From NCBI RefSeq assembly GCF_057098645.1, contig NZ_CM169472.1: 64,000 nt of DNA; one strand, 5' to 3'. A program made the position numbers. This document shows positions 3,001 to 6,000 of this stretch, in pieces. How positions within the stretch are numbered: position 1 is the stretch's first letter; each line of letters starts with the position of its first letter.

Positions 3001-6000
3001 ACCGACCTATGCACAGATTGGTGTTTTTGCCCCCATCTTGCTGGTGACGCTGCGTATTATTCAGGGGTTGGGTGCAGGTGCGGAAATTTCCGGTGCCGGT
3101 ACGATGCTGGCGGAATATGCGCCAAAAGGTAAGCGCGGAATTATCTCCTCATTTGTAGCTATGGGAACTAACTGCGGAACCTTGAGCGCAACGGCAATCT
3201 GGGCCTTTATGTTCTTCATTCTCAGTAAAGAGGAACTGCTGGCGTGGGGATGGCGTATACCGTTCCTGGCGAGCGTTGTCGTGATGGTCTTTGCTATCTG
3301 GTTACGTATGAATCTGAAAGAAAGCCCGGTCTTTGAGAAGGTTAATGACAGCAACCAACCGACAGCAAAACCTGCACCTGCTGGTAGCATGTTCCAGAGC
3401 AAATCCTTCTGGCTGGCAACAGGGCTGCGTTTTGGTCAGGCGGGTAACTCCGGTTTAATTCAGACTTTCCTTGCAGGCTATTTAGTACAGACGTTATTGT
3501 TTAACAAAGCAATTCCAACAGATGCATTGATGATCAGTTCGATTCTCGGCTTTATGACCATTCCGTTCCTTGGTTGGTTATCCGATAAAATTGGTCGCCG
3601 GATCCCGTATATTATTATGAATACCTCTGCGATTGTACTGGCGTGGCCAATGCTTTCTATCATCGTAGATAAAAGCTATGCCCCAAGCACCATTATGGTT
3701 GCACTGATTGTGATTCATAACTGTGCGGTGCTGGGATTATTTGCTCTGGAAAACATTACCATGGCAGAAATGTTCGGCTGTAAAAACCGCTTTACCCGGA
3801 TGGCTATTTCTAAAGAAATTGGTGGTCTTATCGCTTCCGGTTTTGGTCCTATCCTGGCGGGTATTTTCTGCACCATGACGGAATCCTGGTATCCGATCGC
3901 CATTATGATCATGGCATATTCAGTGATTGGTTTAATCTCTGCGCTGAAAATGCCAGAAGTGAAAGACCGTGATTTAAGTGCGCTGGAAGACGCTGCAGAA
4001 GATCAACCGCGTGTTGTAAGAGCTGCGCAACCTTCCAGAAGTCTTTAAATCCTCAATCCCTTCTCTTACCGGAGAGGGGATTTTTTATTCATATAACAAA
4101 ACATGTAGCTTGCCATATTTATATTTAAGGAATAGTTATGGGAAATAATTTGTTATCAGCAAAAGCGACGCTTCCTGTTTATGATCGTAATAACCTGGCC
4201 CCAAGAATTGTTCATTTAGGCTTTGGTGCATTTCACCGTGCGCATCAGGGCGTGTATGCCGATATTCTTGCTACAGAACATTTCAGTGACTGGGGATATT
4301 ATGAGGTCAACTTAATCGGTGGCGAACAGCAAATTGCCGATTTACAACAGCAAGATAATCTTTATACCGTTGCGGAAATGTCGGCCGATGCGTGGACGGC
4401 ACGCGTCGTTGGCGTCGTTAAAAAAGCCTTGCACGTACAGATGGATGGCTTAGAAACCGTGTTGGCTGCGATGTGTGAACCGCAAATCGCGATTGTCTCT
4501 CTGACAATCACCGAAAAAGGGTATTTCCACTCTCCGGCGACCGGACAGTTAATGCTCGATCACCCGATGGTCGCTGCCGACGTGCAAAATCCCCACCAGC
4601 CGAAAACAGCAACAGGGGTGATTGTTGAGGCGCTGGCTCGCCGTAAAGCGGCAGGACTTCCCGCATTTACCGTCATGTCATGTGACAACATGCCAGAAAA
4701 CGGTCATGTTATGCGTGACGTTGTCACTTCATACGCACAAGCCGTTGATGTAAAACTGGCACAATGGATCGAAGATAACGTGACTTTCCCATCAACAATG
4801 GTGGACCGTATTGTGCCCGCAGTGACAGAGGATACGCTGGCGAAAATCGAACAGCTTACCGGTGTGCGCGATCCTGCTGGCGTTGCCTGTGAACCTTTCC
4901 GCCAGTGGGTAATCGAAGATAACTTTGTTGCCGGACGTCCGGAATGGGAAAAAGCGGGAGCCGAACTGGTTAGTGATGTGCTGCCTTATGAAGAGATGAA
5001 GTTGCGCATGCTCAACGGCAGTCATTCATTCCTGGCGTATTTGGGTTATCTTGCCGGATATCAGCACATTAATGACTGTATGGAAGATGAACATTATCGT
5101 TATGCGGCGTATGGCTTGATGTTGCAGGAACAAGCGCCGACGCTGAAAGTGCAGGGCGTTGATTTGCAAGATTACGCTAACCGATTAATTGAACGCTATA
5201 GCAACCCGGCGTTACGTCATCGAACCTGGCAGATTGCGATGGATGGCAGCCAGAAATTGCCACAGCGGATGTTGGATTCTGTTCGCTGGCATCTGGCGCA
5301 TGACAGCAAGTTCGATCTGCTGGCGCTGGGCGTCGCGGGTTGGATGCGTTATGTCGGTGGTGTTGATGAACAGGGAAATCCGATAGAAATCAGTGACCCA
5401 CTGTTACCTGTTATTCAGAAGGCTGTACAAAGTAGTGCCGAAGGGAAAGCGCGCGTCCAGTCATTGCTGGCGATTAAGGCGATTTTTGGTGGTGATTTGC
5501 CAGACAATAGCTTGTTTACTGCAAAAGTGACGGAAGCGTACTTGTCTTTATTAGCGCATGGCGCGAAAGCGACCGTGGCGAAATATTCCGTGAAGTAAAA
5601 AAAGCAATGCCGCCATCGGCGGCATTCACACGCTTAGTTCATGCCGAGACGAATCAGGTCCAGAGGTGCCAGTTTCTCTTCACAACCTTCAACAACTACG
5701 GTTTTTCCGCGGCGGATTTGCTCAGCGGTCAGACCTTCAGTATCAATCGACAGGATCTTGCCAGTGTGACCGGTGCCGCTAACCATAACACGGCTGCCAG
5801 TGGTGATTGCGTTACGGTTACGATCGTAGGTCGTCATAGGTGTTTTCTCCTTTCTGATTTACAGTCGAAGCCCACGTAACGGGCGCAATATAAATACTCC
5901 TGTCGAGTGAAATATTTTTTGTTTTTGATCAAGCTCACATCTTTTTTGATGCATGCATGAGCCATAAGGCGGGGGTAAAGACTCTCATCCCGGATGGGAT

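Follow-up and report, generated by a model that had tools for sequence, protein, structure and literature searches.

At class II promoters activated by FNR, such as those of dmsA, narG, nirB and nrfA, the FNR box is centred at -41.5, where it replaces the -35 element, and sigma-70 occupancy goes up without oxygen. The ydfZ promoter (PydfZ) of E. coli K-12 is another published class II FNR-activated promoter (Myers 2013; reportedly also Kang 2005 and Mettert 2008). Overall, 19 of 23 FNR-activated promoters have their site within -41.5 +/- 4 (PMC3688515). Class II CRP promoters (e.g., galP1) and CRP/FNR hybrid sites share the -41.5 architecture and rely on the same activator family. One published reporter table classifies PydfZ as 'Activated; Class II promoter', PydfZ-lacZ is used in the literature as a class II FNR reporter and as a proxy of FNR activity, and FNR gel-shift assays include the ydfZ promoter as their positive control. 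With this promoter in standard use to report on FNR activity and its site at -41.5 already published, finding it here carries small weight as a discovery.

We analysed a 64-kb stretch of DNA from an E. coli strain other than K-12 (hereafter the window, meaning the whole stretch) and examined the region upstream of ydfZ. This region is almost certainly the known sigma-70, class II FNR-dependent promoter of ydfZ, already published. More specifically, it is the K-12 ydfZ promoter itself, carried by another E. coli strain: the window is identical to K-12 MG1655 from -84 to the ydfZ ATG, with the same box, -10 element, transcription start site (TSS) and leader, and K-12 differs from it only by two substitutions, both upstream of -84 in the hairpin that follows rspR. 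All experimental data on the promoter were obtained in K-12, a different strain from that of the window; given the identity of the two promoters, these data transfer directly.

Over 601 bp, the ydfZ region matches that of O145:H28 strains at 100% identity, and of 5426 complete genomes of E. coli, 5416 contain a match to it. For the first 4.2 kb of the window, the best matches are other strains, at 99.2%. The annotated neighbours around ydfZ are ydfI, ydfZ and rspR, and a 10-bp perfect hairpin lies 3' of rspR. Additionally, the Qin prophage is absent from the window, and rspAB-ydfJ-ydfI are contiguous.

Geometry of the ydfZ promoter and its transcript

The minus strand of the window from 5960 to 5835 reads ...CATCAAAAAAGATGTGAGCTTGATCAAAAACAAAAAATATTTCACTCGACAGGAGTATTTATATTGCGCCCGTTACGTGGGCTTCGACTGTAAATCAGAAAGGAGAAAACACCTATG. 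A motif search of the window returned TTGATCAAAAACAA at 5919..5932 on this strand as a one-mismatch match to TTGATNNNNATCAA, with 9 of the 10 specified bases of TTGAT-N4-ATCAA. The first-pass annotation had placed this box about 29 bp upstream of a TATTTA element, and the distance from the box centre (5925.5) is indeed 29.5 bp. TATTTA lies at 5891..5896 on the minus strand within a conserved block, GCGTATTTATA, and is assigned as the -10 hexamer from its position relative to the mapped TSS. It is a poor element, matching TATAAT at three of six bases; AAAAAT stands at the -35 position, and there is no -35 element. A sigma-70 consensus scan of 5500..6100 found no two-hexamer promoter, which is expected when a promoter depends on an activator.

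The same annotation read the arrangement as the geometry of FNR-activated promoters and proposed a mapped ydfZ start as the point of comparison. The genome-wide TSS map of Kim 2012 (PMC3415461, supplement) provides such a start at 1627192 (NC_000913.2), with 41 reads and a 47-nt 5'UTR, together with an upstream 51-mer, GCTTGATCAAAAACAAAAAATATTTCACTCGACAGGAGTATTTATATTGCG, ending in ...TATTGCG. Placed on the identical window sequence, the final G of this 51-mer is position 5884 (+1, minus strand), so that the box centre falls at exactly -41.5 and TATTTA at -12..-7. The published start is thus compatible with a class II site, and the proposed geometry holds. All the defining features of a class II FNR promoter that can be tested in sequence are present at this locus.

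The mapped start comes from one genome-wide TSS data set, that of Kim 2012. The accessible portion of a Cappable-seq supplement contains no ydfZ entry, and the supplement of Mendoza-Vargas 2009 gives a ydfZ primer only, without a start coordinate. We also considered an alternative -10 element, TATATT (5892..5887), which overlaps TATTTA and matches TATAAT at five of six bases. With this hexamer, transcription would be expected to begin some 4 nt downstream of the mapped position; the hexamer lies at -8..-3 from the mapped TSS and was rejected for this reason.

Downstream of G5884, the rest of the 47-nt leader occupies 5838..5883 on the minus strand and includes a Shine-Dalgarno sequence, GGAG, at 5850..5847. 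The gene below the site is ydfZ, as the first-pass annotation had it: its coding sequence runs from the ATG at 5837 to 5634 (minus strand) and encodes a 67-aa PF14001 protein, annotated as putative selenium delivery protein YdfZ. An intrinsic terminator, also delimited more narrowly as 5626..5606, follows at 5596..5626 on the same strand, with a 9-bp GC-rich stem and then a T run.

The ydfZ mRNA opens at G5884 with a 5'-terminal hairpin, GCCC-GUUACGU-GGGC (5884..5870). In other genera the leader is 10-15 nt longer and carries a related but longer, two-tier 5'-proximal hairpin whose inner helix varies by genus. Folding is better than that of shuffled sequences for 50 of the 52 distinct leaders (mean z -1.55). 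RNAalifold applied to all leaders gave no consensus structure, the alignment being mis-registered; restricted to Enterobacter-like leaders, it gave an 8-bp consensus hairpin with almost no covariation. A Rfam search of 5550..6050 returned no match and no family for the leader hairpin.

FNR occupancy and oxygen dependence

In K-12, at the identical promoter, FNR occupancy in vivo and dependence on FNR and oxygen are established. Myers 2013 (PMC3688515) lists ydfZ among the operons directly activated by FNR (Table 1) and predicts two motifs below its FNR ChIP-seq peak, the top-scoring one at -41.5 and identical to the 14-mer TTGATCAAAAACAA. When the wild type is compared with an fnr deletion, ydfZ is FNR-activated in all three of three columns (Table S8). 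Sigma-70 occupancy and expression of ydfZ are both higher without oxygen, with an aerobic/anaerobic expression value of 0.011 (Table S12) and sigma-70 ChIP values of 63 and 3597, a large anaerobic rise (Table S2). The suggestion that ydfZ is anaerobically induced is therefore correct for K-12, where the gene is FNR-activated with strong anaerobic induction. The rise in sigma-70 occupancy without oxygen is shared with dmsA, narG, nirB and nrfA; compared with these four, ydfZ is not known to need a co-activator under the conditions used. A broad literature search for ydfZ together with ArcA, CRP, NarL or selenium yielded nothing further that was usable. A Salmonella FabR target given as 'ddg/ydfZ' was set aside as irrelevant here, as the source paper also writes yfdZ and the entry looks like a gene-name mix-up.

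Activation almost certainly takes the following course. Without oxygen, [4Fe-4S]-FNR dimerises and binds TTGATCAAAAACAA centred at -41.5, with the box overlapping the place of the missing -35 element. Bound FNR recruits and activates RNA polymerase, which then uses the weak -10 element TATTTA and starts at G5884. The resulting transcript consists of the 47-nt leader followed by the message for the 67-aa putative selenium-delivery protein YdfZ. On the established class II model (see the introduction of PMC3688515), FNR bound at -41.5 probably makes contact with region 4 of sigma-70 as well as with the alpha subunits, and in this way replaces the -35 element. By the same model, a conserved A6 tract at -63..-58 (5942..5947, minus strand) would be the expected seat of the alpha C-terminal domain, displaced upstream of FNR.

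Conservation of the box and its spacing

How often such a box arises by chance was estimated with shuffles. FNR-box matches with at most one mismatch number 3 in the 64-kb window versus 3.49 expected. Long ORFs leave 13.8% of the window uncovered; for this fraction the expectation is about 0.48 matches, and the box upstream of ydfZ is the only one of the three found there. Of the other two, one lies within the 3' end of rspB and one within an ORF of 759 aa. The FNR motif by itself is not significant in this window. With the motif count at chance, the case rests on position, conservation and experiment.

For the comparison across genera, 17 YdfZ proteins were aligned, and with this alignment 80 ydfZ loci were collected from genomes representing one GTDB species each. 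The pattern TTGATC-N3-[AG][AG]CAA is present upstream of ydfZ in 65 of these 80 loci, and one locus beyond those 65 (L057) carries a close variant, TTGATCAAACGCAA. How far the ATG lies from the box centre varies, with 88.5 nt in Escherichia and values of 93.5-105.5 nt in the others. The interval between the box and the -10 block is constant within 1 bp, at 21 nt in the Kosakonia/Phytobacter group and 22 nt in the rest.

Information per alignment column was computed on the ydfZ promoters of 17 genus-level representatives. Both FNR half-sites are invariant at 2.00 bits per column (TTGAT, -48..-44; AACAA, -39..-35), versus 0.16-0.5 bits in the flanks and the spacer. Reading from upstream, the profile gives 0.25 bits in the far upstream segment (-80..-64), 1.56 in the A-tract (-63..-58), 1.80 in TGTGA (-55..-51) and 0.16 in the gap that follows (-50..-49). 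The N4 between the half-sites (-43..-40) reaches 1.87 bits, the spacer (-29..-16) 0.50 and TATTTA (-12..-7) 1.31.

In several more distant genera the box is replaced by a different FNR-like sequence. Klebsiella carries TTGATTATCCTCAA at a 36-nt offset from TATTAA, and Kluyvera carries TTGACAAAGCTCAA or TTGACGAAGCTCAA at the identical 36-nt offset; TATTAA in both genera occupies an offset equal to that of TATTTA. A TSS for Klebsiella KPN_01509 was not found in the available portion of the Kim 2012 supplement (PMC3415461). The FNR-like box is TTGATCGAGATTAA or TTGATCTCGATTAA in Franconibacter, Siccibacter and Buttiauxella, and TTGACCCAGGTCAA in Mangrovibacter. That the box is replaced with the geometry kept argues strongly for FNR control of ydfZ as the selected trait. 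As judged from these alignments, both the box and its spacing are under purifying selection in orthologous ydfZ promoters.

These results bear directly on the explanation that the box is a functionless chance match to the consensus. The expectation of some 0.5 such boxes in the non-coding DNA of the window would allow for it. However, the half-sites are invariant in the 17 representatives with unconserved flanks, the box is centred at exactly -41.5 from the mapped start of Kim 2012, and the published record includes ChIP peaks, an anaerobic induction that is both strong and dependent on FNR, and use of the promoter as a reporter. Conservation, TSS, ChIP and expression data together refute a chance match, to which we assign practically no probability. 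The footprint across genera is the first addition of this analysis to the accessible literature: the box and its spacing are kept, the imperfect right half-site included, and in Klebsiella and Kluyvera the box is replaced in situ.

The overlapping register at -47.5

The segment TTGATCAA is itself palindromic and so creates a second box, GTGAGCTTGATCAA, 6 bp upstream of the first and centred at -47.5. This second box is the inner 14-mer of TGTGAGCTTGATCAAA (5924..5939, minus strand), which has the form TGTGA-N6-TCAAA and differs from the CRP core TGTGA-N6-TCACA by one mismatch. Its left half-site, GTGA, is of CRP type, as in CRP/FNR hybrid sites. The ydfZ promoter thus differs from those of dmsA, narG, nirB and nrfA in having an FNR box with an imperfect right half, AACAA, and in the overlap of this box by a CRP-like second register. 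Unlike the sites of class II CRP promoters, which lie at -41.5, the candidate CRP-like box of ydfZ is centred at -47.5.

The existence of two registers raises the question of which one FNR uses. If FNR activated from GTGAGCTTGATCAA at -47.5, the match to TTGAT-N4-AACAA would be incidental. Grainger 2006, who reported ydfZ as an FNR ChIP-chip target, named the -47.5 register; the PWM scores of the two sites are close (13.18 for GTGAGCTTGATCAA and 13.58 for TTGATCAAAAACAA; Table S6 of PMC3688515); and the GTGA and the N4 bases that form the right half-site of the upstream register are conserved. On the other side, the -47.5 register has two mismatches to the FNR consensus versus one for the -41.5 register. 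It has decayed to more than two mismatches in E. albertii, E. whittamii, E. wuhouensis and Pseudocitrobacter, where the -41.5 register keeps at most one, and Klebsiella and Kluyvera retain only the box equivalent to -41.5. A centre at -47.5 is, in addition, 6 bp off the class II position and roughly on the opposite face of the helix. Activation by FNR from -47.5 is therefore very improbable, and the -41.5 register is retained as the activating FNR site. In the accessible literature we found no mutational dissection proving that the -41.5 rather than the -47.5 register is required.

With FNR acting from -41.5, the upstream register could still serve another protein. ydfZ may carry a composite element, in which the FNR box is combined with a genuine cAMP-CRP site, TGTGA-N6-TCAAA, the two being mutually exclusive or FNR action being modulated by CRP, so that carbon and oxygen signals would be integrated. 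Consistent with this, the 16-mer has a single mismatch to the CRP core, and ydfZ is among the new CRP targets listed by genomic SELEX. TGTGA (1.80 bits) and the N4, which FNR does not contact (1.87 bits), are conserved almost like the FNR half-sites. Furthermore, in the ydfZ promoters of Franconibacter and Siccibacter a separate box of CRP type, with the sequence TGTGATATTCATCACA or one close to it, precedes the FNR box by 29-30 bp. However, the literature search turned up no report of a CRP effect on ydfZ expression, and a centre at -47.5 is atypical and not productive for activation by CRP. The window contains 5 CRP-like matches versus 1.9 expected, which makes any single match weak evidence, and conservation of TGTGA and the N4 could instead reflect a flank preference of FNR, contact with the alpha C-terminal domain, or DNA shape. 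A composite element is, in our assessment, a tentative and rather doubtful proposal, and a genuine role for CRP or for the second register at ydfZ, however it is conceived, we rate as doubtful to unlikely.

FNR activation from -41.5 remains the reading adopted here, and the second addition to the accessible literature is that the overlapping CRP-like register is conserved nearly as strongly as the FNR half-sites. In its strongest form, the idea would make the ydfZ control region a conserved two-register switch, with a CRP-type or hybrid box at -47.5 that shares 8 bp with the FNR box, both registers being under purifying selection across Enterobacteriaceae, and with productive FNR binding facing competition from cAMP-CRP or from FNR bound in a second mode. 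We consider such a switch unlikely. If true, it would tune the anaerobic induction of ydfZ to carbon status.

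Genomic neighbourhood and transcript ends

In the first part of the window (1..5600), rspA, rspB, ydfJ and ydfI follow one another without interruption, and the open reading frame of ydfJ is intact (455 aa); the strain therefore carries neither a Qin prophage insertion nor an IS3 disruption at this place. This differs from K-12, where insertion of Qin splits rspAB from ydfJ, and from O145:H28 RM12581, where the IS3 disruption is present. A second FNR-like box, TTGAACAGGATCAA (2571..2584, plus strand), with one mismatch to the FNR consensus, falls within rspB at its 3' end; the ATG of ydfJ (2681) follows about 100 bp downstream. 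In Table S8 of Myers 2013 (PMC3688515), one column out of three scores ydfI as activated by FNR.

On the other side of ydfZ, about 9 nt past the stop codon of rspR, lies a hairpin with a perfect 10-bp stem and a loop of 4 nt (5982..6005, minus strand; -18.1 kcal/mol, z -5.8); the T run behind it (UCUUUA) is only weak. K-12 and the window differ by two substitutions in the region of this hairpin, which is probably the rspR terminator insulating ydfZ. Downstream, ydfZ and ydfI are convergent, with 35 nt between the ydfZ stop codon (5634) and the end of ydfI (5598). In this region (5596..5634), the intrinsic terminator of ydfZ (5626..5606 and the T run after it) takes up the gap; its hairpin, when read on the ydfI strand, is without a trailing T run.

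The 5' end of the ydfZ mRNA

A hairpin (5870..5884, minus strand) forms the 5' terminus of the ydfZ mRNA. A longer, two-tier version is found in the leaders of Citrobacter, Salmonella, Enterobacter, Kosakonia and Pluralibacter (ydfZ loci L007-L075), with an inner helix that varies from genus to genus: GUGGG:CCCAC, GCGGG:CCCGC (S. arizonae), ACGGC:GCCGU or CGGGG:CCCCG. In Escherichia, a deletion of about 15 nt appears to have removed the inner helix. Comparison of the leader hairpin with Rfam gave no match; it may act as a 5' stabiliser or an attenuator.

Discrepancies in sequence records and literature

One retrieved ydfZ locus, L048 (NZ_VLXZ01000251.1), is a 265-bp low-coverage contig in an assembly of Alkalicoccobacillus porphyridii (Bacillota). 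It matches the promoter and 5' coding region of E. coli ydfZ with 100% identity and almost certainly represents E. coli DNA that contaminates the assembly. The ydfZ site is printed as TTGATaaaaAACAA in the main text of Myers 2013 (PMC3688515), whereas both the genome and Table S6 of the same study give TTGATCAAAAACAA. Finally, a Salmonella FabR paper reports a 'ddg/ydfZ' target, which is probably a different gene from ydfZ because the discussion of the same paper also spells it yfdZ (PMC4804515).

Elements around the FNR box and their variation across genera

A CRP-like box, TGTGAGCTTGATCAAA (5924..5939, minus strand), with one mismatch to the CRP core consensus, is centred at -47.5 and has 8 bp in common with the FNR box. 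Across genera, conservation of TGTGA and of the bases in the FNR spacer is nearly as high as that of the FNR half-sites. The target list from CRP genomic SELEX includes ydfZ. Further upstream, an A6 tract (5942..5947, minus strand; -63..-58) reaches 1.56 bits per column across genera, and the DNA upstream of it is unconserved; the tract is a plausible candidate for the place where the alpha C-terminal domain would dock upstream of FNR.

Variation at this promoter was observed at L074 (1410..1451); L073, L076 and L078; and L030, L033, L040 and L071. In Franconibacter and Siccibacter, an extra CRP-type box (TGTGATATTCATCACA or a close variant) lies 29-30 bp upstream of their own FNR box. In the ydfZ promoters of Klebsiella and Kluyvera, unrelated FNR-like boxes keep the identical offset of 36 nt to a TATTAA -10 element, and these putative sites are read as FNR-box turnover at ydfZ promoters.
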